A program made the position numbers and the translations under genes. Positions 1,231-39,176 of a stretch of DNA of 64,000 nt are shown piece by piece. The notes under the pieces are model-generated. The model saw only the letters and a list, made by a program, of their open reading frames with translations. It ran no database searches and was not told where the DNA came from. The stretch is from an uncultured bacterium (lineage in GTDB: Bacteria; Hydrogenedentota; CAZGCA01), in assembly GCA_964524145.1 (NCBI GenBank), contig CAZGCA010000019.1:4133-68132 (forward strand), in the 5' to 3' direction. The stretch's first letter is position 1. Each line of letters begins with the position of its first letter.

Positions 1231-3771
1231 TCATTTCTTGGGGTCGCGTTTGGCGGGCAGCTTCCAGTCGGGATGGTGTTCCTTGGCCCATTTGTCGCTG
1301 ACCTTGCCGCCAAAAAGGCTTCTCAAGCTGTGAGGATTCACGACTGCCCCGAGATAGATGTGAGCCAGCAACAGGAGAATAATCAACAACCCGGCGAGGT
1401 CGTGAACGGCGTAGAGGAACGCGGTCCTCGGATGATGCGTTCCTTTGTAGAAGTACATCAGGATACCGGTCGCGACAAGGACGAGCCCGAGAAGTATGAC
1501 GATGTATGCGAATATCTTCTGTCCCGCGTTAAACTTGCCGGCAGGAAGCTCCTGGTTGCCGCCGAAGTACCCGCCAAGGCCAAAAAGCCAGCGCACGTCG
1601 CCTTTGGCAGGTATGATGGCACGGAGCCAAAACAGCAGCGCAAGCAACAATGCCCCGCCTCCAACGTAGCCGATGATGCCGTGGAGGTCGCGCGCGCCCT
1701 GCCCGAGGGGGTCGTTTTCACCGAGCAGGAAGAAGAACCCGGTGACCGCGAGATATACCACTGACAGCATCAGTACAAGATGGGTCAGCCGTTCGTGGAG
1801 CCGAAACCGGACGACGTTCGGCACGTATTCCTTCCCGTCGCCGCGGGTGCCGAACAGGCAGAAATGGAGCACGATAACCAGCACAACTCCCAGCACGATC
1901 CATGGCGCAGCAGGTTTTAGCAGCCCCTCTCGCCGCGCCGAGGAGAACACGCTCGAGGCCGAGATCCCCATCATCTTGTGCATCGGGAGAGTGACGGGCT
2001 TTCCGTCCTCGCCGTACGGGTTGATCTTTGCCGCGGCAAAGAAGAACGGCGACTCGCTCGCGTGGCAGTCGTCGCAACCGCCCGCACCTAACGCTTCTCC
2101 GCGCGGTGCAACATTGTGTTCGAGCGCCCATAGAACCGGCCCGGATTGCTTGTGAAAGTAAGACTTCACGGTACCGTCCGTATTGGCTTCAAACACCTTC
2201 AATCCCTTGACAAGAACGGGATTAGGGTCCGCGAACCGTTTGCCGCGAAGCGTCTCTTTAAGGGCGCTTGCTATGGCGGCGATCTCATCACTGGTGTTGA
2301 TCTCCGGTTTCCCGTCACCGTTGTCGTCAAACTCCGCGAAGAGAGCCTGCTCCCTTCTGCGAATTATTTCGGGAGTCACCTTCTTGGGCTTCGAGTCCTC
2401 GACGGCTTTCATGACCATTTGGTCGAAGACGGCCTTGACCTCTTTTGGGAACAGGGGGTGGATGAGGTCGCCTTCCTTGTGTCCCCACCAGACAGGCAAG
2501 AGCATGTTGTAGGGACGTATCTTGCCGTCATCGTCTCTGGTGTACGTCGGCGTCCACTCTGCGACGTCGCCGGCAGCTTTCGCTGTGTCCGGAACCGGGC
2601 TAGTGAACGTTGTGCCCGTGGAATAGTCTATGACGTTCTTGGCAGCGATCTTCTTGTACGGAATGTGGCAAGTCTCGCACGCAATCATGTCGAGATGAAC
2701 CTGCGGCAGCCCGCGATGAACCATCTCGGGTGCGCCGAGGTCTCCCGTAGCGTGGCAATCCTCACATACGCGCATGCTCCCATCAAGGTCGTCGCGAAGC
2801 GTCAGGTTGTTGGTATCGCCTTTTGCGAAGTTGTGGTCAAGGTCGCCGGGATGGCAGTCGATACACCGGATCCCGGATTTTGTGTGCACACCTTCATTGT
2901 AGTGGTCGCCCCAGGTGGTGCCCGTCTTCTCGTAACCCGACTGGTCGTGGCAATGAGTGCAGCTCCGGTCGTCCGGCCGGGTGATGGGCAAATCGATTTT
3001 GCCGTCAACGTTGAACAGTCTGGCGTTGTAGTGGACGCGCGGCACTTCATTGTCCCTGACCGAGCCGGCTATGCCGCCGAGACCCGCTGCCGCCGTTGCC
3101 GCCCAGCGGAAGTTGCCCTTGAGCATCTGCCCGACACGTATGCCGTAGTTGTAGCCCTCACCCAGATGACAGATGAGGCAGTCAGCCTCGATAACGCCGC
3201 TCTCGTCCCAGCGTGCGCCGTAGTAGTCGCCGTCGAGGAGTTGTGCCAGCTCGCTGTCGGTTGTCTGGAGGTCGTCGTACCGGTGGTCGTTGCGGTCACG
3301 CTCGGCCCTGGCGCCCCCGGGATGGCAGATACCGCACTCCATAACCCACTCGTAGACGCCCATATCGGCGTGCGACGGGCTCGGGATATCTTTCGGAGCC
3401 AGTTGCCGGTTGTAGGTAAGATCGAACTTGCCGAACGGTCCGTCCGACAAGGTCCAGGGCTTATCTTTGCCGCCGAAGTCGTCGGTAAGGATGTCGGCGC
3501 CCATCTGAAAATGGTACCCGTCGGTAATGCGGTTGTAGTCGTGGCAGGCACCACACGTTCTGCGCGGGCTGTATGCAGCCGCCGTTTCAGGATCGGCGAC
3601 CGGATCGATGATAAGGCCGTAGTCGTCTCGCAGAAAGAACGGCGGACAGGATGCAGGCCTCAACCGTTCGGCAGCCTCCCCGGAACTCCCGTTCCCGTAT
3701 GCCGTTAGAAGAAATACAATACCAGTGACCGCGACCAACGCGGCGACAACCGTTCTTCCATACAGTCTCAT
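1231..3771 (-). CDS. Octaheme c-type cytochrome fused to a C-terminal diheme cytochrome b (HydC/FdnI-type) membrane domain; CbcL-like quinone-linked electron-transfer protein
   Basis: N-terminal signal peptide. Eight CxxCH motifs (CGACH, CGICH, CLICH, CTHCH, CIDCH, CEDCH, CETCH, CDDCH). C-terminal ~230 aa has four TM helices with conserved His ('HERLTHLV', 'HGIIGY', 'FNAGQK', 'HDLAGLLIILLLLAHIY') resembling the Ni/Fe-hydrogenase and formate-dehydrogenase cytochrome b subunit. Confidence 0.8.
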   Translation of the reverse strand: MRLYGRTVVAALVAVTGIVFLLTAYGNGSSGEAAERLRPASCPPFFLRDDYGLIIDPVADPETAAAYSPRRTCGACHDYNRITDGYHFQMGADILTDDFGGKDKPWTLSDGPFGKFDLTYNRQLAPKDIPSPSHADMGVYEWVMECGICHPGGARAERDRNDHRYDDLQTTDSELAQLLDGDYYGARWDESGVIEADCLICHLGEGYNYGIRVGQMLKGNFRWAATAAAGLGGIAGSVRDNEVPRVHYNARLFNVDGKIDLPITRPDDRSCTHCHDQSGYEKTGTTWGDHYNEGVHTKSGIRCIDCHPGDLDHNFAKGDTNNLTLRDDLDGSMRVCEDCHATGDLGAPEMVHRGLPQVHLDMIACETCHIPYKKIAAKNVIDYSTGTTFTSPVPDTAKAAGDVAEWTPTYTRDDDGKIRPYNMLLPVWWGHKEGDLIHPLFPKEVKAVFDQMVMKAVEDSKPKKVTPEIIRRREQALFAEFDDNGDGKPEINTSDEIAAIASALKETLRGKRFADPNPVLVKGLKVFEANTDGTVKSYFHKQSGPVLWALEHNVAPRGEALGAGGCDDCHASESPFFFAAAKINPYGEDGKPVTLPMHKMMGISASSVFSSARREGLLKPAAPWIVLGVVLVIVLHFCLFGTRGDGKEYVPNVVRFRLHERLTHLVLMLSVVYLAVTGFFFLLGENDPLGQGARDLHGIIGYVGGGALLLALLFWLRAIIPAKGDVRWLFGLGGYFGGNQELPAGKFNAGQKIFAYIVILLGLVLVATGILMYFYKGTHHPRTAFLYAVHDLAGLLIILLLLAHIYLGAVVNPHSLRSLFGGKVSDKWAKEHHPDWKLPAKRDPKK

Positions 3772-22922: not shown

Positions 22923-25900
22923 ATGGCCGAAAGACAGAGATTGTTGGTTGTAATCGCCATCGTGCTGGTCGTTGCAGCGTCCGGGGTCGTGTTGCGCGTG
23001 GGGCGGCACGCAGGTGTCGAGCCGCGCCGAGCGCCTGCTGTGGTAACGGCTGGCAGGCTGGACGAGGATGCGCTGCAACAGACGTCGTGGTGGGCCGAGG
23101 CACAGGAGAACGTTCGGGAATCCGAGTACGCGGTCACGCGGCAGGAGAGGTCTGTCGTCGAAGGCAAGCCGGGCGGGCTTCATGCCGCGAACCGCGCGCA
23201 GAATCTTCGGGCCTACTTTCGGAGGGACGGCGTTGAAGTGGTCCCGCGAACGGGCGATTCCGCCGCGTGGGAATGGAGATGGAAGCTCTCAAGCTACGGA
23301 CGAAGCGACAACACTATCCCCGTTGGCGAGGTGGAGCCCACGCATGAGAGGGATCGGGTCGAGTACGACCGTCCGGGTATCACGGAATGGTACAAGAACA
23401 CGGAAGAAGGGATCGAACAGGGTTTCACCATCCCCGAACGCCTTCAAGGAGATGGCCGCCTTGTTATCGAAGGTATCGTCGGGGCAAGTCTGCATGCTGT
23501 ATCGCCCGATTCGGGCGACCGCGTCCGGTTTCTTGACGGGAACAACGTCGAAGTCCTTCGCTACAGCAGCTTGAAAGCCTTCGACGCGATCGGCAGAGAG
23601 CTGCCCGCCGTGATGCAGCTTGCCAGGAACACCGTTCAGCTCGTGGTCGATGACACCAATGCAATCTATCCGGTCACCGTTGACCCTATCATGACGAGCC
23701 CGCAGTGGATTGCGGGGAGCAACCAGTGGGACGCCAATTCCGGGTGGTCTGTTTCGGGTGCAGGTGATGTGAACGGCGACGGATACAGCGACATAATCGT
23801 CGGGGCGTATCAGTACGACAACGGCCAGGCAGACGAGGGGGCTGCATTCGTGTTTCTGGGCTCCGAGTCCGGAATCGTAGGAGGTCCCCCGGCCGACGCG
23901 GAGGCCGTGCTCGAGTCGAACCAGGCGAATGCGTATTTCGGCTATAGTGTGTCGTGCGCCGGTGACGTCAACGGTGACGGCTATTCCGATGTGATAGTAG
24001 GGGCTGCCGGCCAGGCATACGACATATATGATTTCTCGCCATCAATGACCTACAGTTATGGCGCGTACGACAATGGCGAGGCGAACGAAGGCGGGGCGTT
24101 TGTGTTTCTGGGCTCCCCGTCTGGGATCGTAGGGAGTTCCCCAGGCGATGCCGCCGCCGTGTTGGAATCGAACCAGCCGTACGCGTTTTTCGGCTGGAGC
24201 GTATCGGGCGCAGGTGACGTAAACGGTGACGGGTACGCCGACGTGATCGTCGGGGCGCACCGATACGACCAGGGCCAGACAGATGAAGGCGGGGCGTTCG
24301 TGTTTCTGGGGTCCGCGTCCGGCATAGTGGGGAGTTCTCCGGCCGATGCCGCAGCCGTGTTGGAATCGAACCAGGCGTATGCCTATCTCGGCTGGAGCGT
24401 ATCGTACGCAGGTGACGTAAACGGCGACGGGTACGCAGACGTAATCGTCGGGGCGTATCAGTACGATCACGCCCAGACGGACGAGGGTTCGGCCTTTGTG
24501 TTCCTCGGTTCGGTGTCCGGAATCGTCGGGACCAACCCCGGCAATGCAGCGACGGCGTTGGAGTCCGACAATGAGGCGGCGCAATTCGGATACAGCGTAT
24601 CGGGGGCGGGGGACGTGAACGGTGATGGATACGCTGATGTCATTGTAGGGTCGCCTTACGACGAATACAATCCCGTTGATCCCTATGAGGTGTTGATCGG
24701 ACGCGCGTTCGTGTATCTCGGCAACTCCTCGGGATTGGAAACGGGCCCCGTGTGGACGGCCCAGGGTGTCGACAAAGAGTGCTTTGCATGGGCCGTTTCC
24801 ACAGCCGGAGACATCAACGGAGACGGGTGTGCCGACGTTATCGTCGGCGCCCCTGTCCGGAACGCGTTCCACGGTCCGGAAGACCCCGTACCTGCGGGCC
24901 GTGTGCTGGCATATCTCGGGAACTCGAGCGGTGTCTCTGCTGATCCGGTTTGGAGCGTTGAGAGCGATACGGAAGAAGCCATGCTGGGTTATAGCGTATC
25001 GAGCGCGGGCGACGTCAACGGTGACGGGTACTCCGACATCATCGTCGGCGCCCCTCTCCACAGCATTACGAAATCGAATGAGGGCGGGGCGCTTGTGTTT
25101 CATGGTGGGTGTGAACCTCCTGCCGCGAGACCGGTATGGAGGATTGAGGATTTCGTGGCGTCCGACAACTACGGGGCAGCCGTTGCAGCATTGGGAGACA
25201 TAAACGGAGACGGCTATGACGATGTAACCGTCGGCGACCCCGCCTTCCCCAATTCCGACCCCTCCTCTGAAGGGGCCGGGCGAGTGTATGTGTACCTGGG
25301 AAACAACACAGGGTTGGAGAGCGGGCCGGTATGGAGTGCGCCGGGAGGCTCGTCGGGTTCTGCCGTCGGCGGGGCCGTTTCCGGTGCCGGCGACGTTGAC
25401 GGCGACGGCCACCCCGAACTCATCATTGGAGACCCCGGCTTTGACAATCGTGGCCGTGTCCTTGTCTACGGCTGGAACGGATCGGACCTCTCACCAGTGT
25501 GGAGCGCCGAAGGCGTTGAAGCTGAAGCAGAGTTCGGCGCGTCCGTCGCAGGAGTTGGAGATGTGGACGGGGACGGGTACGCAGATGTGCTGGTCGGCGC
25601 GCCGCTATACGACGACGGGTTGTCCGACCAAGGCCGTGTCTTTGCCTACTTTGGGAGCCCGACGGGCCTCAGCACCTCGGCCAAATGGGTTGCGAGTCCG
25701 GCCCAGGCGGGCGCACGGTTCGGTACCTCGGTTGCGGGAGCGGGCGACGTCAATGGTGACGGCTATGCGGATGTCATCATCGGGGCACCATTTTGTGACG
25801 GTGCATACCCCAATGTCGGGCGTGCGTGCGTGTACCTCGGGAGCGCAGCCGGCCTGCCGGACTCCCCGGCGTGGACTGTTGACGGAGAACAGGAGGACGC

Positions 25901-28900
25901 CCAGTTCGGTTCCCGGGTCACGGGTGTAGGCGACGTCAATGGCGACGGGTACGACGACGTGCTCGTGGCAGCGCCGCTCTATGACGGCATCTTCTTTGAC
26001 GGTGGCCGCATATTCCTGTATCTCGGTAACGCGTCGGGCATCTCAAGCACACCTGTGTCGGAACAAGACGGGGCCCAAGAGGATTCCCAGCTTGGCGCAT
26101 CCGTTGCCGGGGTGGGAGACGTGAGCGGAGACGCTCTGGCAGATGTGCTTGTCGGGGAACCCGGATATGAACTCCCGCCTGAGTACGAGGGGGGTCCAAT
26201 GCAGGTTAACGGGCGGACGGTTCTGTTTGAGGGTTCCCCAGAGGGGCTCTCGTCGGCACCAACCTGGACGTGCGAGGCTGGCGCGTATTACGACATGGGA
26301 CATGCGGTGTCGGGAGCCGGCGACATGAACGGGGATGGAGCTCTCGATATGCTGGTTGGGGTTTCCGGTGACAGCCCTCATCTGTTGAATGGGTACGTGA
26401 GGTATTTTATCGGAAACGGGGGCGACGGGCCTGAGCCTAAACCGGGAATAACGCAACAAAGCGGCGACCCGGTTGGCGCACCGGGCATAGTCGTCGACGA
26501 TGGGGGGATTCGGCTTGTCATGGCAGGAAAGGTGCCACTCGGGCGCGCGGCAGTAAGACTGGAATGGGAGATCGAGCCGTACGGTACAACCTTTGACGGG
26601 TTGGAAATACGGACGAGCGACCCATGGCACGATAGCGGCCTCTTAGGGTATCCGTTTGACAGGCTTATCACCGGATTGGGAGACGCTCACGGTTTCCGCG
26701 TTCGGATGCGCTTGCTTTACGCTCCGCTTGAAGTGCTGCAACCTGGAATCACTCCGCCGCCCAATCCTTCACACAGTCCGTGGTTCTATCCTTGCTGGGC
26801 GACAGTGGGCCCTTCCGATTTTCGGGCCTCCGGCTATCGGCCTCCGACGGACCCCGGCACGGTCGTCGTCACGCAGACTGCTCTGAGCACGGTGGACGAC
26901 ATCCAGTGCACAGTGGACGCATCAAGTACCTCACCAGCCGTGCCGCCGCAACCCGTTCAGTACGAGTTTCTCTGGTCGAACGGAGAGACCAGCGTCGTGC
27001 ATGTGTCCTCATCCTTGACAGACACACTCGACGCCTCTGAAACGAGGAAACATGAGACTTGGACCTGCACGGTGCGGGCATGGGACGGAGTCCAATACTC
27101 GCACGGTGCTTCGTCGGACACGGCTCCTCAAATCGACAACACGGCGCCGTCGCAGGCGACTCTTGACTGGGTGCGCGGTTCCGGTGCGGAACCCTACGAA
27201 TACGGGCCGCTCGATACAGTCCAAATCCAGATAACGGACTACTACGACGCCGACAACGACCTGCTGGTACCGGAGTTCACATGGGAGTACTACAGGGGCG
27301 GCACGTGGAACTCACCGGACTCGACAAACGTGTCGAGCACCACACTGTCGAGCTGGATAGAATCCGGTATTCCGCAGGAAGGCGATGTGTGGAAGTGTAC
27401 GGTGCGGATGTATGATGGTGAAGCCTGGAGCGGCTCGTCGAGTCTCGAGGCAACGATATTGGAGACGGGTGTTGACGAGTTGCTGATGACTATAGCGGTA
27501 ACGCCGCAGAGCGTCACGCTTGGCGAGGGGGTGACGATCACAGGCGGCGTGAGCCCGTCAGCGGACGTAGCGATATCGTTCAAGAGCAAGGAACTAGGTT
27601 CGAGTGGCTTTTCGCGGTCTTTTCCCCAAGGCGTGACCGCGTCCTCGGGCGCATTTAGCAAATTCTTCCTGCCGGACGCGGCGTCGGAAGGCCGATCCGA
27701 CTGGGAGGTGAGAGCGGAATTCAACGGAGACGCCTACTACCGCCCCGCAACGAGCAACGAAGCGTCTTTCGCCGTGGCCAAGGCCGAACCGGAGCTCGAG
27801 CTGGACTTGTCGCATGCCACGGCCTTGGTCAATCTAGGCAACGCAGAGAGTTTCGCTGCGACGGCGACCCTGTCGGTGGACGGCTTTCCCACGGAGCTCA
27901 AACCGTTGTTGTCGGGCAAGACAATCCGGCTGTCGGTGTCGGACCCGGATGGCCAGACGCCGTATGACCCCATCGAGAAGACGACAGACTCCGATGGCGA
28001 GGTGGTGTTAACCGCCCAGGACTTCAGGGACGCATGGGATCCCTCCGATACGGACGGCATCTTCATGGAGTCGGGGGTGTGGAAGTTCAAGGCGGAGTTT
28101 GCGGGCGACGACAACTTCACGCTTGCCTCGACGCCGGACTATGACGAAACCGACGCGCGTCTTATCGTCAAGGAAGGCGCGGGCTACGCGATACTCGTGC
28201 TGGGCCGTCTCGACCAGACCGCAGAAGGTCATGACGCGCACGCCAAGACCACCGACTACATCTACCGCACGCTGGTGGATCGGGCGTTCGACCCGAGCGA
28301 CATCTACTACATGCGCGAGTACCTGGGCGACGAAAAGGAGTCGTCGGATATCGAGGTTGACGACGAGTCGCCGACCAAGGCGGACGTGCAGTATGCAATA
28401 GAGACATGGGCCTACGACGCGATATTCGATTCGCCGGCGACGTTCTACATCATCTTTGCCGACCACGGCAGCGTGGACAAGTTCCACCTGTGGTCTTCGG
28501 AGAACACCGAAGACGATGACCAGTACCTCACGCCCAATGAGCTTGACGGCTATGTTGATCTGCTCGAAACGCAACTTGGAACCGACCCGGAGATAGTGTT
28601 CATCTACGGTGCATGCCACTCGGGGAGTTGCATTCCGACCCTCTCCGCATCGAACCGGGTGCTTATCACGAGCTGCGCTGAGGACGAGATCTCGTACCGT
28701 GGGGTGGACAGCGATCCGACGGACGGTTCGGACGTGCGGGACGGCGAGTTTTTCCTGATGGAGCTGTTCCGTAACGCGGGCGCGGGCAGGTCGTTCGAGG
28801 AGTCGTTCGAGCTTGCCTCGGCCAAGACGGTCGAGTACACGGCGTCGAAGAGCAACGGGGCGTTGGCCGATGAGCCGCAGCACCCGCTGCTCGACGACGA

Positions 28901-31643
28901 TGGAAACGGTGTGGGCACGCCGGGCGCGTCGCTGGGCGCGGTGGGCGCGGACGGCAGCCGTGCATCGAGCATGATCCTGGGGTTGGGCTCGAACGCGGGC
29001 AACACGGTGAGCTGGTTCACGGTGAGCGCGCCGGTATCGATAGATCCCGGCGAAGACATTCCCAGCCCATTGTTCGCGGAGACGACGGGCCGCGCGCTGA
29101 CCGCAGAGGACACGGCGTGGATAGAGGTGAAGACACCGACGTACGACAGTGGCGAGCTGGCCGACTCGGAGTATTCGGAGTTCCAGAAGCAGGCGGAGAT
29201 GGCGGGCCCGATCGCTCCGGGCAGCTCGGAGTCTGTCGGTGAGGAGAAAGTGCGGTTCGAGTGGGCCCAGACCGATCTGGACCCGTACCTGAGCTTCGAC
29301 ACCTCAGGCACGTACAAGGTGTACTACTTCCTGAGAGACGGGACAACAGGCCAGGTGAGTTCGTACCTGGTGACGAACATCTACGTCTCGCTGGCGGACA
29401 ACCAGCCGCCGCAGGCGGTGACGCTGGCGTACCCGGGCGAAGGGGCAGTGTTGAAGAGCACGATATTCTTTGTCTGGGGAGAGAGCAGCGACCCGGAGGG
29501 CGACGCGATAACGTACCGGCTCGAGGTGGCTGAGGACAGCGGGTTCACGACCGGTCTGATAGTCAAGGACGGTATTGCCGGCACGGTGACGCAACTCACC
29601 GCTGCGGACGGCATCGAGGATCTCACGGGCTACTACTGGCGCGTGATCCCGGTGGACACGTACGGAGCGAGCCCGGCGACCAATACGGTTCGCGCGTTCA
29701 GTGTAAACAAGGCCAATCCGGACCTGCAAGGCCTGATAACGGGTACGGTGAAGGATTCGGCGACGGGCGATGCCATTGCAGGTGCGAGCATCACGCTGAC
29801 GCCGGGCTCCCATCCCCTCACGACCTCGACGACGCAGGGAGTGTACTATTTCGCGAACCTCTCGCCGGGACTGTACACGGTAGACGCCTCGGCTTCGGGC
29901 TATTACGATGAGAGTGACGCTGCGAACGTGCCGACGGGCGGTCATGCCGAGGTGAATTTCGAGCTGGCCCTCGAGAGCAACCCGCCAGCGTGTGCTACGA
30001 TACCCGACGTGAGCTTCGATGAAGACGGCACCGACACGAGCATTGATCTCGACGACTATGTGTCCGATGCGGACAACACGGATGCGGAGCTGAGTTGGAC
30101 GTACTCGGGCGCGACGAACGTGACGGTATCGATCCGCTCGACGACCCATATAGTGACGCTCGGTGCCGCGGCGAACTGGTACGGCACCGAGACGATAACG
30201 TTCACCTGTACCGATACCGGCGGATTGTCGGACAGCACCGACGTGGTCGTAACAGTAGACTCCGTCAACGACGATCCGTGGATAGATCCTGCACTACCGA
30301 ATCTGGCTGTGGAGGCGGATGTGGGTCTGCCATACGATCTGACGCAGCACGAACACGATATCGAGGACAGCGACACCGGGCTCATCTGGTCAATCAACGG
30401 TGTCAGCACATCGTTGTTCGATGCCACAATCGATGAGGCCACCGACGAGCTGACCGTCACGCCTGTACCCGGCGCGGAGGGCAGCGATTCCGTGCAGCTT
30501 GTGGTGCAGGATAGCGAGGGTGCCGCGGCGTCGCAGTGGCTCACGGTAACGGTGGCGCAGGACACGGACGACGACGGTATGCCCGACACCTGGGAACGTG
30601 AGCACGGACTGGACACGGGGAGCAACGACGCGTCACAAGACGCCGACGGCGACGGGCTGACCAACCTCGAGGAATACGGTGCCGGCACCGATCCGCAGGA
30701 GGCTGACAGCGACGACGACGGGTACACCGACAAGGAGGAAGTCGATCATGGCACCGATCCCAACGACGAGACGGATACGCCCGCACCCCGGCTGGCGAAC
30801 GTCACGATCGAGCCGCAGGATCCGCACGTGTACACGAGCATACCGGTAACGTTCACGGTCACGGGCGAGATGGACGATGGGGCCACGGCCGATTTGAGCG
30901 CCGCGACGGTGACCTGGGCTGTGGTGTCGGGCGTTGGTGATATCGACCCGGATACAGGCATCTTCGAGAGCGATACGGAGGGCGCAGCAGAAATCTCGGT
31001 TACGGTAGAGTTGGATGGCGTGACGCGGAGCGACACGGTATCGTTCGAGGTCGAGAGCAAATCCGTCCTGACAGTCGGGTCGGATGACATTCAAGGGGAC
31101 GAGCCCGTCTCCATTGCAGTGACGCTGACCTCTGGTGCCATCGATGTTGCCGAGATAGAGTTTACGCTGGTGATAGACTCGCAGGTGGTCGAGGTTGTGA
31201 GCATTGTCGCAGGCGCGCAGGCGGACACTGGCGGCAAGACCGTAGAAGTCTCGCAGGTGGACGCCAACCATCACGATGTCGCTGTTGGTGGAAACAGTGC
31301 AGTGCTGGCCGACGGCGAGATCGTGGTGATCATGCTGGGAGCGGCCGCGAGCGGCGAAATCGGTCACTGCTCTTCGATCGAGCTGCAGGACACGGCGTGC
31401 TACGATCCCGCTGGCGGCGCAGTCCCTGCCGTTGGCATTGGCGGTCGGTGCTGCCTGACGGTGGCATACCTCGCGTGCGACGTCGACGGCAACGGATTCG
31501 TCAACGCTCTGGACGTCCAACTCGTCATCAACGCCGCGCTGGGCGAAGACGTCTCTTGGGACTGCGATGTCGACGGTAACGGGTTCGTCAACGCCCTGGA
31601 CGTCCAACTCGTCATCAACGCCGCGCTGGGGATCGATACGTAG
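22923..31643 (+). CDS. Giant (2906 aa) secreted multi-domain surface protein: 14 FG-GAP repeats, Ig-like domains, clan-CD caspase-fold peptidase domain, CarboxypepD_reg-like/FN3/cadherin-like domains, TSP3-like Ca-binding repeats, cohesin-like domain, C-terminal dockerin
   Basis: Signal/anchor 'LLVVIAIVLVVAASGVVL'. 14 copies of 'FGYSVSGAGDVNGDGYADVIVGA' (FG-GAP). Legumain-like dyad 'IIFADHGS' and 'VFIYGACHSGSC'. 'VNDDP' Ig-like module. 'DTDDDGMPD...DADGDGLTN...DSDDDGYTD'. C-terminal duplicated 'CDVDGNGFVNALDVQLVINAALG' (dockerin type-I-like). Confidence 0.85.
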   Translation: MAERQRLLVVIAIVLVVAASGVVLRVGRHAGVEPRRAPAVVTAGRLDEDALQQTSWWAEAQENVRESEYAVTRQERSVVEGKPGGLHAANRAQNLRAYFRRDGVEVVPRTGDSAAWEWRWKLSSYGRSDNTIPVGEVEPTHERDRVEYDRPGITEWYKNTEEGIEQGFTIPERLQGDGRLVIEGIVGASLHAVSPDSGDRVRFLDGNNVEVLRYSSLKAFDAIGRELPAVMQLARNTVQLVVDDTNAIYPVTVDPIMTSPQWIAGSNQWDANSGWSVSGAGDVNGDGYSDIIVGAYQYDNGQADEGAAFVFLGSESGIVGGPPADAEAVLESNQANAYFGYSVSCAGDVNGDGYSDVIVGAAGQAYDIYDFSPSMTYSYGAYDNGEANEGGAFVFLGSPSGIVGSSPGDAAAVLESNQPYAFFGWSVSGAGDVNGDGYADVIVGAHRYDQGQTDEGGAFVFLGSASGIVGSSPADAAAVLESNQAYAYLGWSVSYAGDVNGDGYADVIVGAYQYDHAQTDEGSAFVFLGSVSGIVGTNPGNAATALESDNEAAQFGYSVSGAGDVNGDGYADVIVGSPYDEYNPVDPYEVLIGRAFVYLGNSSGLETGPVWTAQGVDKECFAWAVSTAGDINGDGCADVIVGAPVRNAFHGPEDPVPAGRVLAYLGNSSGVSADPVWSVESDTEEAMLGYSVSSAGDVNGDGYSDIIVGAPLHSITKSNEGGALVFHGGCEPPAARPVWRIEDFVASDNYGAAVAALGDINGDGYDDVTVGDPAFPNSDPSSEGAGRVYVYLGNNTGLESGPVWSAPGGSSGSAVGGAVSGAGDVDGDGHPELIIGDPGFDNRGRVLVYGWNGSDLSPVWSAEGVEAEAEFGASVAGVGDVDGDGYADVLVGAPLYDDGLSDQGRVFAYFGSPTGLSTSAKWVASPAQAGARFGTSVAGAGDVNGDGYADVIIGAPFCDGAYPNVGRACVYLGSAAGLPDSPAWTVDGEQEDAQFGSRVTGVGDVNGDGYDDVLVAAPLYDGIFFDGGRIFLYLGNASGISSTPVSEQDGAQEDSQLGASVAGVGDVSGDALADVLVGEPGYELPPEYEGGPMQVNGRTVLFEGSPEGLSSAPTWTCEAGAYYDMGHAVSGAGDMNGDGALDMLVGVSGDSPHLLNGYVRYFIGNGGDGPEPKPGITQQSGDPVGAPGIVVDDGGIRLVMAGKVPLGRAAVRLEWEIEPYGTTFDGLEIRTSDPWHDSGLLGYPFDRLITGLGDAHGFRVRMRLLYAPLEVLQPGITPPPNPSHSPWFYPCWATVGPSDFRASGYRPPTDPGTVVVTQTALSTVDDIQCTVDASSTSPAVPPQPVQYEFLWSNGETSVVHVSSSLTDTLDASETRKHETWTCTVRAWDGVQYSHGASSDTAPQIDNTAPSQATLDWVRGSGAEPYEYGPLDTVQIQITDYYDADNDLLVPEFTWEYYRGGTWNSPDSTNVSSTTLSSWIESGIPQEGDVWKCTVRMYDGEAWSGSSSLEATILETGVDELLMTIAVTPQSVTLGEGVTITGGVSPSADVAISFKSKELGSSGFSRSFPQGVTASSGAFSKFFLPDAASEGRSDWEVRAEFNGDAYYRPATSNEASFAVAKAEPELELDLSHATALVNLGNAESFAATATLSVDGFPTELKPLLSGKTIRLSVSDPDGQTPYDPIEKTTDSDGEVVLTAQDFRDAWDPSDTDGIFMESGVWKFKAEFAGDDNFTLASTPDYDETDARLIVKEGAGYAILVLGRLDQTAEGHDAHAKTTDYIYRTLVDRAFDPSDIYYMREYLGDEKESSDIEVDDESPTKADVQYAIETWAYDAIFDSPATFYIIFADHGSVDKFHLWSSENTEDDDQYLTPNELDGYVDLLETQLGTDPEIVFIYGACHSGSCIPTLSASNRVLITSCAEDEISYRGVDSDPTDGSDVRDGEFFLMELFRNAGAGRSFEESFELASAKTVEYTASKSNGALADEPQHPLLDDDGNGVGTPGASLGAVGADGSRASSMILGLGSNAGNTVSWFTVSAPVSIDPGEDIPSPLFAETTGRALTAEDTAWIEVKTPTYDSGELADSEYSEFQKQAEMAGPIAPGSSESVGEEKVRFEWAQTDLDPYLSFDTSGTYKVYYFLRDGTTGQVSSYLVTNIYVSLADNQPPQAVTLAYPGEGAVLKSTIFFVWGESSDPEGDAITYRLEVAEDSGFTTGLIVKDGIAGTVTQLTAADGIEDLTGYYWRVIPVDTYGASPATNTVRAFSVNKANPDLQGLITGTVKDSATGDAIAGASITLTPGSHPLTTSTTQGVYYFANLSPGLYTVDASASGYYDESDAANVPTGGHAEVNFELALESNPPACATIPDVSFDEDGTDTSIDLDDYVSDADNTDAELSWTYSGATNVTVSIRSTTHIVTLGAAANWYGTETITFTCTDTGGLSDSTDVVVTVDSVNDDPWIDPALPNLAVEADVGLPYDLTQHEHDIEDSDTGLIWSINGVSTSLFDATIDEATDELTVTPVPGAEGSDSVQLVVQDSEGAAASQWLTVTVAQDTDDDGMPDTWEREHGLDTGSNDASQDADGDGLTNLEEYGAGTDPQEADSDDDGYTDKEEVDHGTDPNDETDTPAPRLANVTIEPQDPHVYTSIPVTFTVTGEMDDGATADLSAATVTWAVVSGVGDIDPDTGIFESDTEGAAEISVTVELDGVTRSDTVSFEVESKSVLTVGSDDIQGDEPVSIAVTLTSGAIDVAEIEFTLVIDSQVVEVVSIVAGAQADTGGKTVEVSQVDANHHDVAVGGNSAVLADGEIVVIMLGAAASGEIGHCSSIELQDTACYDPAGGAVPAVGIGGRCCLTVAYLACDVDGNGFVNALDVQLVINAALGEDVSWDCDVDGNGFVNALDVQLVINAALGIDT

Positions 31644-34089: not shown

Positions 34090-34118
34090 TTGACAAATCT
34101 GCGCCTGCCTGCTATGAT
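34090..34118 (+). promoter_or_regulatory. Near-consensus sigma70 promoter TTGACA-17-TATGAT driving the second giant gene
   Basis: TTGACA at 34090-34095, 17-nt spacer, TATGAT at 34113-34118. Implies a 5'-UTR of about 170 nt before ATG 34293. Confidence 0.5.
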
Positions 34119-34292: not shown

Positions 34293-37200
34293 ATGAACAG
34301 ACACCCCATTCTGGCTGCTGTTGTCATCGCGCTGTGCCCTGCAGCATTTGCGGACACCTGGTACGTTGACGCCGAGAACAGCTTCCCGATTCAAAGCGGC
34401 AGAAGCTGGACCACGGCGTTTACGGCCATCCAGGCCGGTATCGATGCCGCGTCGGACGGCGATGACGTCATCGTCGCCGAGGGCACGTACGTCGAAAACG
34501 TCAACTTCAACGGGAAGAATATCGTCCTGCAATCGACCGACCCGGCGAACCCCGACGTGGTCGCCAACACTGTCATCGATGGCGAACGGTATAGTTCGGT
34601 GGTGACCTTCTCCGGGGAAGAAGCAGAGGAGTGCGTCCTTTCCGGGTTCACCATCACCTGCGCCGACAGCTATTGGGATTACCGCCGCGGTATCAGCGGA
34701 AACGGGACGCTGGCCACCATCGAAAACAACACGATCTCACACAACTTAGCGATGTCTCTTCACTATTTCTTCGGGGAAGAGACTATGGACAACTACGGCG
34801 GTGGAGTCTGCGATTGCGACGGCATCATCCAGAAAAACACCATCACCCGCAACGCAGCGGGCCATTCTGGTGGCGGGCTCGCTTATTGTGACGGCATCAT
34901 CCGGAACAACACGATCAGCGACAATACCGCGTACGGAGGCGATTGGTTTTACGGGATTGTCGACGGCGGTGGAGGCGCACTCTATTCGTGCAACGGCACG
35001 GTCGAAAACAACATAATCTCGGGCAACTCAGTCGACGGCACTTTTTCGTATGGCGGTTTCGGTGGCGGGCTCTTCGAGTGCGACGGTACCGTACAGAACA
35101 ACGCTATCTGCGATAACTCGGCCTACTATGGTGGTGGGCTCTACAGTTGTGACGGTACCGTCCTGAACAACACCGTCACAAACAACACCGCTCACGGGTA
35201 CGGCGGCGGACTGTATCTCTCCTACGGACTGATAAGCAACTGCATCGTGTGGGCGAACGCTGCACCAGACGGGGCACAGCTTGACAATTGCAGCATGCCG
35301 CGGTATAGCTGCATACAGGATTGGACCGAAGGCGGCACGGGCAACATAGCAGATGACCCCAGATTCATCGATCTATCTGCCGGCGACTACCATTTGCAGC
35401 CCGATTCTCCCTGTATTGATACCGGCAACATTGACGATCTTTATGTTGCTGCCGCCGCCGGTTGCGTCAACGACATTGATGGAGAATGCCGGCTGGCCGG
35501 TGGTTCTGTGGATATAGGCAGTGACGAGCACAATAGTCCCGCAGACACTGACGGCGACCTGCTACCCGACAGCGATGAGATCGCCCTGGGCCTCAGTCCA
35601 TACGACGCGGATACAGACTCCGACGGCTTGATGGATGGATTGGAGCTCTTGCGGAGAACTGATCCATCCTCATACGATACCCCCGCCGGCATGGTGGTTC
35701 TCGCAGGCATCTCCTCGATCCAGGCTGCGCTTTCCCTAGCGTTTCCCTCCGAAACCATTATCGTCTATCCGGGTACCTATTATGAGAACCTCCGTTTCCC
35801 GGGGAAAGACGTCGTCTTGCGTTCGACCGCACCCACCAGCCCCGGCATCGTCGGCTCAACCATCATCGATGCCGGTCGGAACGGTCCTGCCGTCATGTTC
35901 CATGGCACGGAATCGTCCGATTGCGTCTTATCGGGATTCACCATCACAAACGGCACCGCGTCCGAAGGCGGCGGTATCCGCGGGTACGGAACCCTGGCCA
36001 CCATCGAGCACTGTACCATCTCGGGTAACTACTCGGAAGACAATGGCGGTGGCTTGTATGACTGCCGCGGCACCATTCGGAACAACATCATTTCGGACAA
36101 CTCGGCTCGTTATAACGGCGGCGGCCTCTCCCGTTGCGACGGAGCAATCGAGAACAACACCATCTCGGGCAACACCGCCGATTACGAATTCGGCGATGGC
36201 GGCGGGTTGCATAACTGCAGCGGCACTATCCGGAACAACACCATCTCAGAGAACGTGGCCGGAGTGGACGGTGATGGCGGGGGGCTGTTCAGATGCGATG
36301 CATTGATCCTGGGCAACACCATCACTGACAACTGGGCAGAATATGGTGGCGGACTCGCAGACTGCAACGGCACCATACAGAACAATACAATCGCGGGCAA
36401 CTCCGCGGGACGAAACGGCGGAGGGCTAAGCGGATGCGATGATGCCATCCTGAACAACACCATTACAGACAACTCGGCCGCTAATGGCGGCGGGCTCAGC
36501 CGGTGCAATGGCGCAATCCTCAACAATACTATTGCCGGCAACTTTGCCGTGTACGATGGCGGCGGATTGGACGCTTGCAGCGGTGCAATCCTGAACAACA
36601 CGATCGCGGACAACTCTGCCCGTACCGGTGATGGCCTCCATCGCTGCGACGGGTTTATCGCGAACTGTATCATCTGGGGAGACTCCCCCGACAGCGGCCC
36701 GCTTTTCAGTTCCAACATGCCTCTCCATAGCTGTATTCAGAACTGGACTGATGGCGGTGCGGGCAACATCTCCGACGACCCAAGGTTCGTGGACGCGCCC
36801 GGTGGAAACTACCATTTGAGCTCGGACTCGCCCTGCATTGATGCGGGCAGCCTTGGCCATGCTTATCTGCCTGAGTCATGGGTTGGCGACATCGACGGAG
36901 AGTGCCGGTTGGCAGGCAGCTCTATAGATATGGGCAGTGATGAGCAAAACAGCTCTGTGGACAATGATAGCGATTTGCTTCCTGACATCGATGAGACCGC
37001 CTCAGGAAGCGACCCCTACAACCCCGATACGGACGGGGATGGCGTACCTGATGGGTTGGAGGTCTTCCGAGGAACCGACCCGACCGTTTATACGACGGCT
37101 TCGGGCATTTCCGTTCCCGCAGACCTCCCTTCGATACAGACGGCGATCATGGTGGCGTTTCCTGGAGAGCTCATAACCGTCTCCCCGGGAACCTATTACG

Positions 37201-39176
37201 AGAACCTTCGCTTCATGGGGAAAGACGTCATCCTGCGCTCGACCGACGCCTTAGATCCCGCTGTAGTCGACTCGACAATCATCGACGGCAGCGAAGCAGA
37301 TTCGGTGGTAACGTTCGGCGGCGCCGAATCACCTGATTGCGTTCTCTCAGGGTTCACCATCACGAACGGCCGCGGCTACTACGGCGGAGTCAATGGAAAT
37401 GGGACTCTGGCTACGATCGAGAACAACACCGTGTCGGCCAATTCCGCTTTTAGGATCTACAGCGGATGGGTTTATCTCGGCGGGAGGGGTGCCGGCCTCT
37501 ACGATTGCGACGGTACCGTGAGGAACAACACTGTCTCGGCTAACTCCTGTTCCGGAAACAATACTGCCGGTGGCGGGTTGTACGGGTGCGACGGCATCAT
37601 CGAGGCCAATACCATATCGGGTAACTCAGCCTTTGAAGGCGGTGGTTTGTACGATTGCGACGGCGTCATCGATGACAATACGCTGTCAGGTAACTCGGGC
37701 GGCAACGGTGGTGGCCTGTGCGAATGTGACGGCGTCATCCAGAGTAACACGATCTCCGATAACTCGGTTCGTGGCCGTGGTGGCGGGCTGTACAACTGCC
37801 AGGCCACTGTCCAGCAGAACATCATCTTAGGCAACTCCGCGGAGAACCACGGTGGCGGAGTTGACGGGTGCGACGGGACCATCCGGAACAACACGATCTC
37901 GGACAACTCCGCGGGATATGCAGGCGGCGGCCTGTGGGGCTGCCACGGCGTTGTCGAGAATAACACTATCTCGGGCAACTCCGCGAGCGACAGTGGCGGT
38001 GGGCTTTGGGCCTGCAACGGCACCATCCGGAACAACACGATCTATGGCAACCACGCCGACAGCGCGGGCGGCGGGCTGGCGTGGTGTGACGAAGCTGTTA
38101 TCAAGAACTGCGCTATCTGGCAGAATGCTGCGCCTGAAGGGGCTCAGTTGTACGAGTGCGTCGATCCTTCTTACAGTTGCATCCAGGACTGGACAGGTGG
38201 CGGGGAAGGAAACATCTCCGACGATCCATTGCTTGTAAACCCGGACAACGGCGATTTCCACCTTGATCCGGACTCTCCCTGCATCGACGGAGGCGGCCTT
38301 GTGGACGGTTTGACCGACGACTTTGAGGGCGACCCGAGGCCGATTGATGCCGTCGGTGACCCTCGCGGCGACGGTTCTGACTTCGACATTGGCGCTGATG
38401 AGTTCTCTGATGACATCGATTCGGACGGCGACGGGATAGTCGATGCCGACGAAGGGCCGGGCGATGCGGATGGTGATGGAGTTGCCAACTATCTCGACGC
38501 GGATTCGGACGGCGACACCGTTCCCGATGAGATGGAACGCGCGGACGATTCGGACGGCGACGGGCTTGCCAATTATCTCGACACGGACTCGGATGGAGAT
38601 GGCATGCCCGATGAGGACGAAGGCGCTGACGACCTCGACGGCGACGGAACGCCAAACTTCCTGGATCTCGACAGCGACGAGAACGGTATCGCGGATTCTG
38701 ACGAAGGCGCGGGCGATCCGGATCGGGATGGCATTCCCGACTACCGGGACCTCGACAATGACGGAGACGGCATCTCGGACAACGATGAAGGGACGGATGA
38801 CCCGGATGCTGACGGAGTCCCTAACTACCTTGACACGGACAGCGATGGCGACGGCATTCCAGACCTCGAAGAAGGCACCGGCGACCCCGACAACGACGGC
38901 ACGCCGAGCTATCTCGACACCGATTCGGACGGAGACGGCGCTTTGGACGTGGAAGAAGCCGCGTTCGGCACCGACCCATACGACGCGGCGGATTCGCCGT
39001 TTCCGTTTGGCGACGTCAACAGATCGCGCCGTGCGGACGCCATCGATGTCCAACTCGTGATCAATGCGATACTTGCCCTGCCGGTGGATTACGATTGCGA
39101 TATCAATGGGGATGGCGCGGTCAATGTCGCCGACCTGCAGCTTGCCATCAACGCGGCGCTGTGGATCGAATCCTAG
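34293..39176 (+). CDS. Giant (1627 aa) secreted protein: three tandem ~430-aa right-handed parallel beta-helix modules, TSP3-like Ca-binding repeats, C-terminal dockerin-like module
   Basis: Signal 'MNRHPILAAVVIALCPAAFA'. Three modules each start 'GTYYENLRF(P/M)GKDV(V/I)LRST...CVLSGFTITNG', followed by repeated 'NNTISGNSA..GGGL..C.G.I.NNTI' beta-helix rungs and a conserved 'C(I/V)QDWTxGGxGNIxDDPxF...DYHL..DSPCID.G' cap. Long run of 'DSDGDG.PD'. Ends 'CDINGDGAVNVADLQLAINAALW'. Confidence 0.85.
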   Translation: MNRHPILAAVVIALCPAAFADTWYVDAENSFPIQSGRSWTTAFTAIQAGIDAASDGDDVIVAEGTYVENVNFNGKNIVLQSTDPANPDVVANTVIDGERYSSVVTFSGEEAEECVLSGFTITCADSYWDYRRGISGNGTLATIENNTISHNLAMSLHYFFGEETMDNYGGGVCDCDGIIQKNTITRNAAGHSGGGLAYCDGIIRNNTISDNTAYGGDWFYGIVDGGGGALYSCNGTVENNIISGNSVDGTFSYGGFGGGLFECDGTVQNNAICDNSAYYGGGLYSCDGTVLNNTVTNNTAHGYGGGLYLSYGLISNCIVWANAAPDGAQLDNCSMPRYSCIQDWTEGGTGNIADDPRFIDLSAGDYHLQPDSPCIDTGNIDDLYVAAAAGCVNDIDGECRLAGGSVDIGSDEHNSPADTDGDLLPDSDEIALGLSPYDADTDSDGLMDGLELLRRTDPSSYDTPAGMVVLAGISSIQAALSLAFPSETIIVYPGTYYENLRFPGKDVVLRSTAPTSPGIVGSTIIDAGRNGPAVMFHGTESSDCVLSGFTITNGTASEGGGIRGYGTLATIEHCTISGNYSEDNGGGLYDCRGTIRNNIISDNSARYNGGGLSRCDGAIENNTISGNTADYEFGDGGGLHNCSGTIRNNTISENVAGVDGDGGGLFRCDALILGNTITDNWAEYGGGLADCNGTIQNNTIAGNSAGRNGGGLSGCDDAILNNTITDNSAANGGGLSRCNGAILNNTIAGNFAVYDGGGLDACSGAILNNTIADNSARTGDGLHRCDGFIANCIIWGDSPDSGPLFSSNMPLHSCIQNWTDGGAGNISDDPRFVDAPGGNYHLSSDSPCIDAGSLGHAYLPESWVGDIDGECRLAGSSIDMGSDEQNSSVDNDSDLLPDIDETASGSDPYNPDTDGDGVPDGLEVFRGTDPTVYTTASGISVPADLPSIQTAIMVAFPGELITVSPGTYYENLRFMGKDVILRSTDALDPAVVDSTIIDGSEADSVVTFGGAESPDCVLSGFTITNGRGYYGGVNGNGTLATIENNTVSANSAFRIYSGWVYLGGRGAGLYDCDGTVRNNTVSANSCSGNNTAGGGLYGCDGIIEANTISGNSAFEGGGLYDCDGVIDDNTLSGNSGGNGGGLCECDGVIQSNTISDNSVRGRGGGLYNCQATVQQNIILGNSAENHGGGVDGCDGTIRNNTISDNSAGYAGGGLWGCHGVVENNTISGNSASDSGGGLWACNGTIRNNTIYGNHADSAGGGLAWCDEAVIKNCAIWQNAAPEGAQLYECVDPSYSCIQDWTGGGEGNISDDPLLVNPDNGDFHLDPDSPCIDGGGLVDGLTDDFEGDPRPIDAVGDPRGDGSDFDIGADEFSDDIDSDGDGIVDADEGPGDADGDGVANYLDADSDGDTVPDEMERADDSDGDGLANYLDTDSDGDGMPDEDEGADDLDGDGTPNFLDLDSDENGIADSDEGAGDPDRDGIPDYRDLDNDGDGISDNDEGTDDPDADGVPNYLDTDSDGDGIPDLEEGTGDPDNDGTPSYLDTDSDGDGALDVEEAAFGTDPYDAADSPFPFGDVNRSRRADAIDVQLVINAILALPVDYDCDINGDGAVNVADLQLAINAALWIES

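Follow-up and report, generated by a model that had tools for sequence, protein, structure and literature searches.

Type-I-like dockerins at the C-termini of two large adhesin-like proteins of an uncultured bacterium as probable cohesin-binding tags

Here, we analyzed a stretch of 64,000 nucleotides of genomic DNA from an uncultured bacterium (contig CAZGCA010000019.1, positions 4,133 to 68,132; the whole stretch is referred to as the window). Two long genes on its + strand encode protein 1 (22923-31643, 2906 aa) and protein 2 (34293-39176, 1627 aa), both of which end in a type-I-like dockerin. We propose that these tails are cohesin-binding tags that tether exported adhesin-like proteins to cohesin-bearing partners of the cell envelope or to each other, a reading to which we assign a probability of about 0.62. 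A preliminary description of the window had noticed the shared C-terminal module and suggested a common binding partner, plausibly a cohesin-like domain in protein 1; this interpretation was partly supported.

Dockerin modules of the two proteins

The two tails were 54% identical over 54 aa in a BLASTP comparison (E 3e-17), and each of them matched Pfam Dockerin_1 (PF00404) as an isolated sequence (E 6e-11 for protein 1 and 5.5e-8 for protein 2). Chance or low-complexity similarity was ruled out by these pairwise and Pfam E-values. The preliminary description had reported the same dockerin-like module, with the type I signature, at both ends; the tails that it quoted were present exactly, and the alignment and the profile search that it proposed were both significant. 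A regular expression for the calcium loop, applied to all six frames of the window, gave three matches only, all within the two tails.

Each tail contains two segments of ∼22 residues, in which a 12-residue EF-hand-like loop (Asp/Asn ligands at positions 1, 3, 5, 9 and 12) is followed by a helix. In protein 1, the dockerin (31476-31640, + strand) is formed by two identical calcium-loop-plus-helix segments of 23 residues each, CDVDGNGFVNALDVQLVINAALG (31476-31544 and 31563-31631), and ends with IDT. At the DNA level the two halves shared 64 of 69 nucleotides, and all five differences were synonymous. Because the halves are identical as protein in spite of these differences, the pattern of substitutions implies constraint or concerted evolution and not a very recent duplication. 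The match of protein 1 to Dockerin_1 reached 34.3 bits over the whole protein (cutoff 22.9) and 42.8 bits for the isolated tail.

In protein 2, the dockerin (39012-39173, + strand; found by Pfam, AlphaFold2 (AF2) and Foldseek) comprises DVNRSRRADAIDVQLVINAILA (39012-39077), a linker of 7 residues, DINGDGAVNVADLQLAINAALW (39099-39164) and the residues IES, followed by the stop codon (39174-39176). Its second segment is canonical, as are both segments of protein 1, whereas the first has an atypical loop, DVNRSRRADAID, which retains D, N, S, D and D at the ligand positions and has Arg at positions 4, 6 and 7. Only 2 of the 95 family members examined (see below) had Arg at loop position 6. A homologue of protein 2 with 43% identity (locus L104) has a fully canonical dockerin, and the Arg-rich first loop is therefore peculiar to protein 2. 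The whole protein scored 22.0 bits, just below the Pfam cutoff, and passed the gathering threshold only as a 58-aa tail (33.3 bits); the precomputed annotation of the gene contains Beta_helix only and misses the dockerin. Thus, tails of this type are probably under-annotated.

The AF2 models of both tails showed the dockerin fold, that is, two antiparallel helices flanked by loops. For protein 2, the predicted local distance difference test score (pLDDT) was 88 (96-98 in the core), the helices were located at positions 26-36 and 55-65, and all 33 matches of the tail in the Protein Data Bank (PDB) by Foldseek were dockerins (TMt up to 0.76, root mean square deviation (rmsd) 1.4-2.2 Å). For the tail of protein 1, modeled together with the preceding cohesin, pLDDT was 89.8 (86-97 in blocks over residues 1-130) and the dockerin helices were at positions 150-160 and 179-189 of the model. 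On the basis of profile and fold, both C-termini are bona fide type-I-like dockerins, with paired EF-hand calcium loops and a helix after each, and both are predicted to bind calcium and cohesin.

The two dockerins differed strongly in their internal symmetry. The halves of protein 1 were identical at 22 of 22 positions, ranking first among 83 family members, only one other of which (L025) had identical halves, whereas those of protein 2 agreed at 9 of 22 positions (rank 82 of 83). Cellulosomal dockerins with symmetric halves have a dual binding mode, and those with asymmetric halves a single one. By analogy, we infer that the dockerin of protein 1 might bind in two orientations and that of protein 2 in one.

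A cohesin fused to the dockerin of protein 1

The cohesin-like domain that the preliminary description had placed in protein 1 proved to be real. It covers residues 2713-2851 (31059-31475, + strand) and was identified by profile, AF2 and Foldseek. As an isolated domain it scored 28.5 bits against Pfam Cohesin (PF00963; cutoff 24.1), compared with 20.9 bits within the whole protein. All eight of its aligned homologues matched Cohesin as well (best E 5.5e-11), and a profile built from these eight matched only cohesins in PDB. In the Foldseek search, the best match was 2xdh (E 3e-11, TMt 0.81), the cohesin of Archaeoglobus fulgidus, which is non-cellulosomal; type I cohesins came next (TMt 0.75-0.83), and all 50 matches listed were cohesins. 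In the model, residues 2713-2851 adopt the nine-stranded beta-sandwich fold of cohesins. The gap between cohesin and dockerin was 1-4 residues in protein 1 and in every related cohesin-dockerin fusion.

Upstream of this cassette, protein 1 begins with a hydrophobic segment, read from the sequence as a signal peptide or signal anchor, and then contains, in the order given by the ORF translation and Pfam scan, many FG-GAP repeats, a Peptidase_C13-like region, CarboxypepD_reg, Big_9, a TSP3 repeat and an Ig-like domain. The Peptidase_C13 (legumain-like) match was borderline (23.4 bits against a cutoff of 22.8; residues 1842-1969, window 28446-28829) and lies inside the region of approximately residues 1547-2348 that is best conserved relative to homologues in L089, L061, L031 and L070. 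Protein 2 has a cleavable-looking signal peptide (…AAFA/DTW, read from the sequence), three right-handed beta-helix blocks, which matched the generic Beta_helix family only, and Asp-rich TSP3-type calcium repeats before its dockerin (translation and Pfam scan). An identical protein 2 was present on contigs from three samples (JGI metagenome 3300028837 and two more). No match to a glycoside hydrolase, lyase or esterase family was found in either protein by the Pfam scan.

The closest homologue of protein 1 (L089) was 66% identical over residues 1547-2348 and then continued directly into the dockerin, without a cohesin. In a locus of the same sample, Ga0114922 (L082), a separate protein had a tail of TSP3, Ig-like, cohesin and dockerin, which was 58% identical to that of protein 1. 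Since one protein lacks the cohesin and the other carries the full tail in the same sample, the comparison marks the cohesin of protein 1 as a shuffled accessory and points to shuffling of C-terminal modules.

A large and conserved dockerin family

To characterize the distribution of this dockerin, genomes of 185,579 species, one per species, were scanned for the motifs D[VI]Q[LR]VINAA or DVQL[VI][IV]NxAL. This gave 316 matches, 271 of which were confirmed, and a scan of metagenomes added 436 further confirmed matches. Among the best 78 loci, 56 came from metagenome-assembled genomes (MAGs) labeled Hydrogenedentota/Hydrogenedentes and 15 from MAGs labeled 'uncultured Nitrospiraceae', a label that we doubt; the remainder belonged to Acidobacteriota and one MAG of the FCB group. 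A single MAG accounted for 25 of the 78 loci, with the module on many unrelated adhesin-like proteins (at least 25 copies in this one MAG). It should be noted that the 'uncultured Nitrospiraceae' MAGs (CAZFOG01, CAZBQH01 and CAZLBS01; L004, L006, L013, L035 and others) carried the same dockerin family as the Hydrogenedentota MAGs.

Hidden Markov models (HMMs) built from the alignments were run over 157 recruited loci (1.9 Mb). In 174 of 197 complete dockerin open reading frames (ORFs), the module lay at most 10 residues from the stop codon (median, 1 residue), and about 20 family members had it at the N-terminus or internally. Sixty recruited dockerin ORFs were at least 1000 aa long. The consensus of both halves was D[VI][ND]G[DSN]G.V[ND]A[VL]D[VI]QLVINAALG, in which D12 and Q14 were invariant (95 of 95). 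A second dockerin gene was found within about 10 kb at 11 of the 78 loci, and the flanks contained a further dockerin gene approximately every 66 kb.

A search with the tail of protein 1 retrieved many proteins that shared the dockerin alone, with named hosts mostly Candidatus Hydrogenedentes. Their passengers included RHS, CarboxypepD_reg, TSP3, FG-GAP, rhodanese, Ig-like and leucine-rich repeat domains, and beta-helices also occurred in the family; five large Hydrogenedentota passenger proteins analyzed with Pfam contained PASTA/Glug, Ig-like, fn3, CarboxypepD_reg and FG-GAP. Glycoside hydrolases were absent from the passengers examined, namely those of the tail search and the five large proteins. 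The sequences thus place the two dockerins in a large, strongly conserved paralogous family, which occupies the extreme C-terminus of dozens of large, apparently secreted adhesin-like proteins per genome in Hydrogenedentota-like bacteria. We found no paper describing a dockerin expansion in Hydrogenedentota, and Hydrogenedentes dockerins appeared only in incidental mentions. As a class, non-cellulosomal cohesin-dockerin modules have been known since 1999-2009, and proteins 1 and 2 belong to this class.

Cohesins in related genomes

Hydrogenedentes UBA2224 (L005, 5471-10552) contained a cohesin/dockerin operon that was conserved in L004, L086 and L088, with a similar arrangement in L007. Its products are two small dockerin proteins with a signal peptide, a protein in which TSP3 repeats come after an N-terminal dockerin, two cohesins, each ending in a hydrophobic helix and an Arg-rich tail, and one adaptor of 225-239 aa composed of signal peptide, cohesin and dockerin. 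The operon of CAZFOG01 (L004) was nearly equal to that of UBA2224, and here too the Nitrospiraceae label looks doubtful. Giant proteins with a terminal fused cohesin-dockerin cassette were present in L018, L046, L048 and L077, often with a cohesin-only gene after them. In Acidobacteriota-like loci, proteins of 600-3500 aa ended in such a cassette, and a cohesin-only gene typically followed the cassette protein (L018, L026, L044, L119, L132, L133, L149 and L158; also L136 and L126). The products of these cohesin-only genes were typically 410-418 aa long (shorter or larger in L018, L026 and L126), and the gene pair occurred twice in L119. Four cassette proteins were arranged in tandem in L140.

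A profile search with the cohesin alignment against 1.84 billion cluster representatives gave 4,681 relatives, of which 1,574 had E≤1e-10. Of the best 147, 67 were small single-cohesin proteins (at least 25 of these had a transmembrane-plus-basic tail) and 30 were cohesin-dockerin fusions; this set also contained multi-cohesin scaffoldin-like proteins, the largest with eight or more cohesins. Most of the small single cohesins (among P0143-P0264, for example, P0253, P0196 and P0216) had an EGEGEG linker, a Gly-Cys motif, a transmembrane helix and a basic tail, and P0253 passed the NCBIfam model GC_trans_RRR (MYXO-CTERM; 17.3 versus 15.85 bits). These tails and the GC_trans_RRR match suggest a surface anchor for the small cohesins that would depend on a sorting enzyme. 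In nine proteins (P0167, P0169, P0186, P0224, P0231, P0236, P0239, P0246 and P0267), two copies of an EF-hand-like segment followed the cohesin (SAD.N.D..I.LSELLR.IQFFN..YHC....EDGY); the SAD.N.D..I.LSELLR segment looks like a divergent dockerin type and was missed by the dockerin HMM and NCBIfam.

Genomic context

The window has a G+C content of 59%. Between the two giant genes, which are 2,649 bp apart, lie an epimerase gene and a gene for a pyridoxal phosphate-dependent enzyme. A candidate sigma-70-like promoter was located 5' of the protein 2 gene (34090-34118, + strand; TTGACA, 17 nt, TATGAT, with a TG extension); in the consensus scan it agreed at 11 of 12 positions, which is a consensus match only. 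Given this promoter-like site and the two intervening metabolic genes, the sequence assigns the protein 1 and protein 2 genes to putative separate transcription units and not to an operon. The other genes were those of an ordinary chromosome, such as L21/L27, Obg, ProB, MshE/T2SSE ATPase, BatA/VWA proteins and metabolic enzymes. An 846-aa protein on the opposite strand (1231-3771, - strand) had multihaem cytochrome c matches (Cytochrome_C7, MtrC/MtrF-like) and a C-terminal cytochrome b561 (Ni_hydr_CYTB) domain.

The partner search proposed in the preliminary description recovered, within the window, the two tails and the cohesin of protein 1; an HMM scan of all stop-to-stop ORFs detected no other dockerin or cohesin there. 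A multi-cohesin scaffoldin with a substrate-binding module was likewise absent from the 64 kb. With regard to the host, the best named matches to Obg of the window were from Hydrogenedentota (51-53% identity), with similar scores for Firmicutes; homologues of protein 1 in Hydrogenedentota MAGs showed 42% identity. Based on the Obg comparison, the host appears to be a divergent uncultured lineage, whose affinity to Hydrogenedentota rests mainly on the dockerin subtype and the protein 1 homologues.

Discussion

We suggest that the tails of proteins 1 and 2 would bind cohesin modules in a calcium-dependent manner and that exported proteins tagged in this way would be held by cohesin-bearing envelope proteins or by each other. 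Because a real cohesin is fused directly to its dockerin, protein 1 would be tagged cargo and receptor or adaptor at once. Its cohesin could capture other dockerin proteins, protein 2 being one of many candidates, or protein 1 could chain with itself head to tail. With almost no linker, the dockerin of protein 1 would be unable to fold back onto the face of its own cohesin; since it is unlikely to reach that cohesin, intermolecular contacts would be favored. The cell-surface location of these proteins, and which cohesin would bind which dockerin, are what we infer from these data. A much broader picture is tentative, and we regard it as doubtful in its full extent: dockerin-tag display might be a lineage-wide system of a presumably diderm uncultured phylum, in which giants bearing the near-invariant helix are captured by an anchored cohesin subfamily (some members being MYXO-CTERM/GC_trans_RRR-like) and giants with the linker-less cassette, including protein 1, chain into an extracellular protein mesh.

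Several observations weigh against the tethering that we propose. First, the Arg residues at positions 4, 6 and 7 may impair the first calcium loop of protein 2. Second, family HMMs found no cohesin-only or anchored cohesin gene within the 64 kb window. Third, if the cell is diderm, as we presume, a complex anchored by a helix of the inner membrane would remain in the periplasm, which makes surface display insecure. Fourth, the host is only loosely placed; in view of the low identity of its Obg to Hydrogenedentota, the operon evidence from other MAGs carries over by analogy. Finally, because the census loci were found through the conserved motif, their conservation is overestimated and, in one half, partly built in.

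The preliminary description had drawn from the proximity of the two dockerins, 2.6 kb apart, that they share a specific partner in the cohesin of protein 1. In its strict form, this would make the dockerin of protein 2 the dedicated ligand of that cohesin, within a defined two-component complex. The same strand does carry a real cohesin and a real dockerin at a distance of 7.6 kb, adjacent genes often encode cohesin-dockerin partners in Acidobacteriota-like loci, and the helix conserved throughout the family makes cross-binding plausible, so that binding of the protein 2 dockerin to the protein 1 cohesin is possible. As a dedicated arrangement, however, it is unlikely. Proximity has little weight because the dockerin family is large and dense. 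In the family comparison, the two dockerins of the window were 55% identical to each other, below the mean of 61% between the protein 1 dockerin and members from other genomes, 85% of which were closer to it than that of protein 2. The two genes, with two metabolic genes in between, seem to be transcribed separately, and the closest homologue of protein 1 has no cohesin. In addition, no retrieved contig contained both a protein 1-like and a protein 2-like gene, which is weak evidence as the contigs of the closest relatives were mostly short (1.8-7.5 kb). For these reasons (numerous subtype, low mutual identity, absence of the cohesin in the homologue and separate transcription), the pairing of the two window genes is probably not special.

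It is similarly improbable that the dockerins are partner-less calcium modules, either caps for folding and stabilization or EF-hand pairs that bind ligands such as polysaccharides or prey surfaces, in extension of the TSP3 repeats. In protein 2, as in many members of the family, the dockerin does come directly after such repeats, and the surplus of dockerins in the recruited loci (∼199 dockerin ORFs and ∼60 cohesin ORFs, even though recruitment itself favored cohesins) would suit this explanation; moreover, many non-cellulosomal dockerins have no demonstrated partner, according to a general statement in PMC9012536. An excess of dockerins is, however, normal for cohesin-dockerin systems. The helix, which in known complexes forms the contact with cohesin, is the most conserved part of the module, including Q14 and D12, and a single cohesin subfamily co-occurs with the dockerins in the same genomes and operons and is repeatedly fused to them, which argues for cohesin-binding tags.

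An export or sorting signal, read at the C-terminus by a secretion or sorting machine without any cohesin (as for the C-terminal domain (CTD) of the type IX secretion system (T9SS), the type I secretion system (T1SS), PEP-CTERM or MYXO-CTERM), might explain a strictly C-terminal module confined to one lineage and present on many unrelated cargo proteins, but it is very unlikely and was rejected on tail composition, fold and NCBIfam: the tails (…INAALGIDT and …INAALWIES, each up to the stop codon) lack both a transmembrane helix and a basic cluster and matched no NCBIfam sorting domain, the fold is a helical EF-hand pair and not the beta-sandwich of the T9SS CTD, the N-terminal Sec-type hydrophobic leaders of both proteins speak against T1SS, the module is N-terminal or internal in some members, and transmembrane-plus-basic sorting-type tails occur in these lineages on cohesins and not on dockerins. 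The alternative offered in the preliminary description, a lineage-specific C-terminal anchoring signal, was right in spirit with regard to an anchoring tag; this tag would, however, act through cohesin binding and not as a sortase- or secretion-type signal.

Several known systems are comparable with the proposed cohesin-binding tags. Similar to type I cellulosomal dockerins (PF00404; for example, Clostridium thermocellum Xyn10B, 1ohz/2ccl, and C. acetobutylicum Doc0917, 6kgc-6kgf), the modules described here are C-terminal and contain a 22-residue segment twice, each copy with a 12-residue EF-hand-like loop and a helix; the tail of protein 2 superposes on them (TMt 0.70-0.76, rmsd 1.4-2.2 Å), and the identical halves of protein 1 mirror the symmetry behind the dual binding mode of 2vn5/2vn6. 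On the other hand, the passengers are adhesin-like and not carbohydrate-active enzymes, the host is an uncultured, presumably diderm bacterium and not a Firmicute, the DVQLVINAALG helix is near-invariant across paralogues and even phyla, and the halves of protein 2 are strongly asymmetric. A cellulosome or amylosome is defined by dockerins on carbohydrate-active enzymes, whereas the passengers here are of the adhesin, Ig, RHS and PASTA types.

The cohesin of Amy4 from Ruminococcus bromii was shown by experiment to bind the C-terminal dockerin of Amy4 itself as well as the dockerins of Amy9 and Amy10, so that multimers and mini-complexes form (Ze et al., 2015, PMC4611034). Amy4 likewise combines a cohesin and a C-terminal dockerin on one polypeptide, and by analogy the same logic may apply to protein 1. 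However, Amy4 is an amylase of glycoside hydrolase family 13 (GH13) from a Gram-positive gut bacterium, whereas protein 1 has no glycoside hydrolase, is twice as long and leaves only 1-4 residues between cohesin and dockerin. In adaptor scaffoldins such as ScaB of Acetivibrio cellulolyticus (PMC4959524), one or more cohesins and a dockerin on one protein also bridge cargo to an anchoring cohesin. Their modules differ in specificity type, whereas the fused and the passenger dockerins considered here share the conserved helix, and distinct specificities are therefore not evident.

Proteins of A. fulgidus also carry a cohesin and a dockerin on one polypeptide. These and other non-cellulosomal modules resemble ours in that they have no cellulose-degrading context, and 2xdh was the best structural match of the protein 1 cohesin; they differ in domain of life and passengers, and the Hydrogenedentota family is much more expanded per genome and located on giants. 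For archaea, non-cellulosomal cohesin-dockerin pairs have been verified according to PMC9012536, which also cites Peer et al. (2009) on modules of this kind in bacteria and archaea, and the genomes of anaerobic methanotrophic (ANME) archaea are rich in dockerin and cohesin proteins (PMC9012536). An attachment role was proposed for the giant proteins of Omnitrophota, which combine dockerin/EF-hand modules with bacterial TSP3 calcium repeats (West-Roberts et al., 2023, bioRxiv 10.1101/2023.11.21.568195). These are likewise very large predicted extracellular proteins with both kinds of modules. In contrast with the single terminal dockerin, the length of 1.6-2.9 thousand aa and the canonical cohesin partner domain found here, they reach at least 30,000 aa and contain numerous internal repeats of the dockerin, with transmembrane and SecA-like regions at the C-terminus.

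If tethering through cohesins holds, the dockerin tail would be an address label that determines the destination of very large surface proteins, dozens of them, in an uncultured phylum, and a handle for predicting the surface proteome of this lineage from sequence alone. The wider pattern, with a near-invariant helix on dozens of giants, linker-less cassettes and small anchored cohesins, is more interesting than the gene pair from which we started. Cassettes on giants and small anchored cohesins would then extend the use of cellulosome parts to surface or intercellular networks in non-cellulolytic, probably diderm bacteria. If the doubtful mesh were also real, it would represent a protein-only surface matrix built from cellulosome parts and unrelated to polysaccharide degradation.

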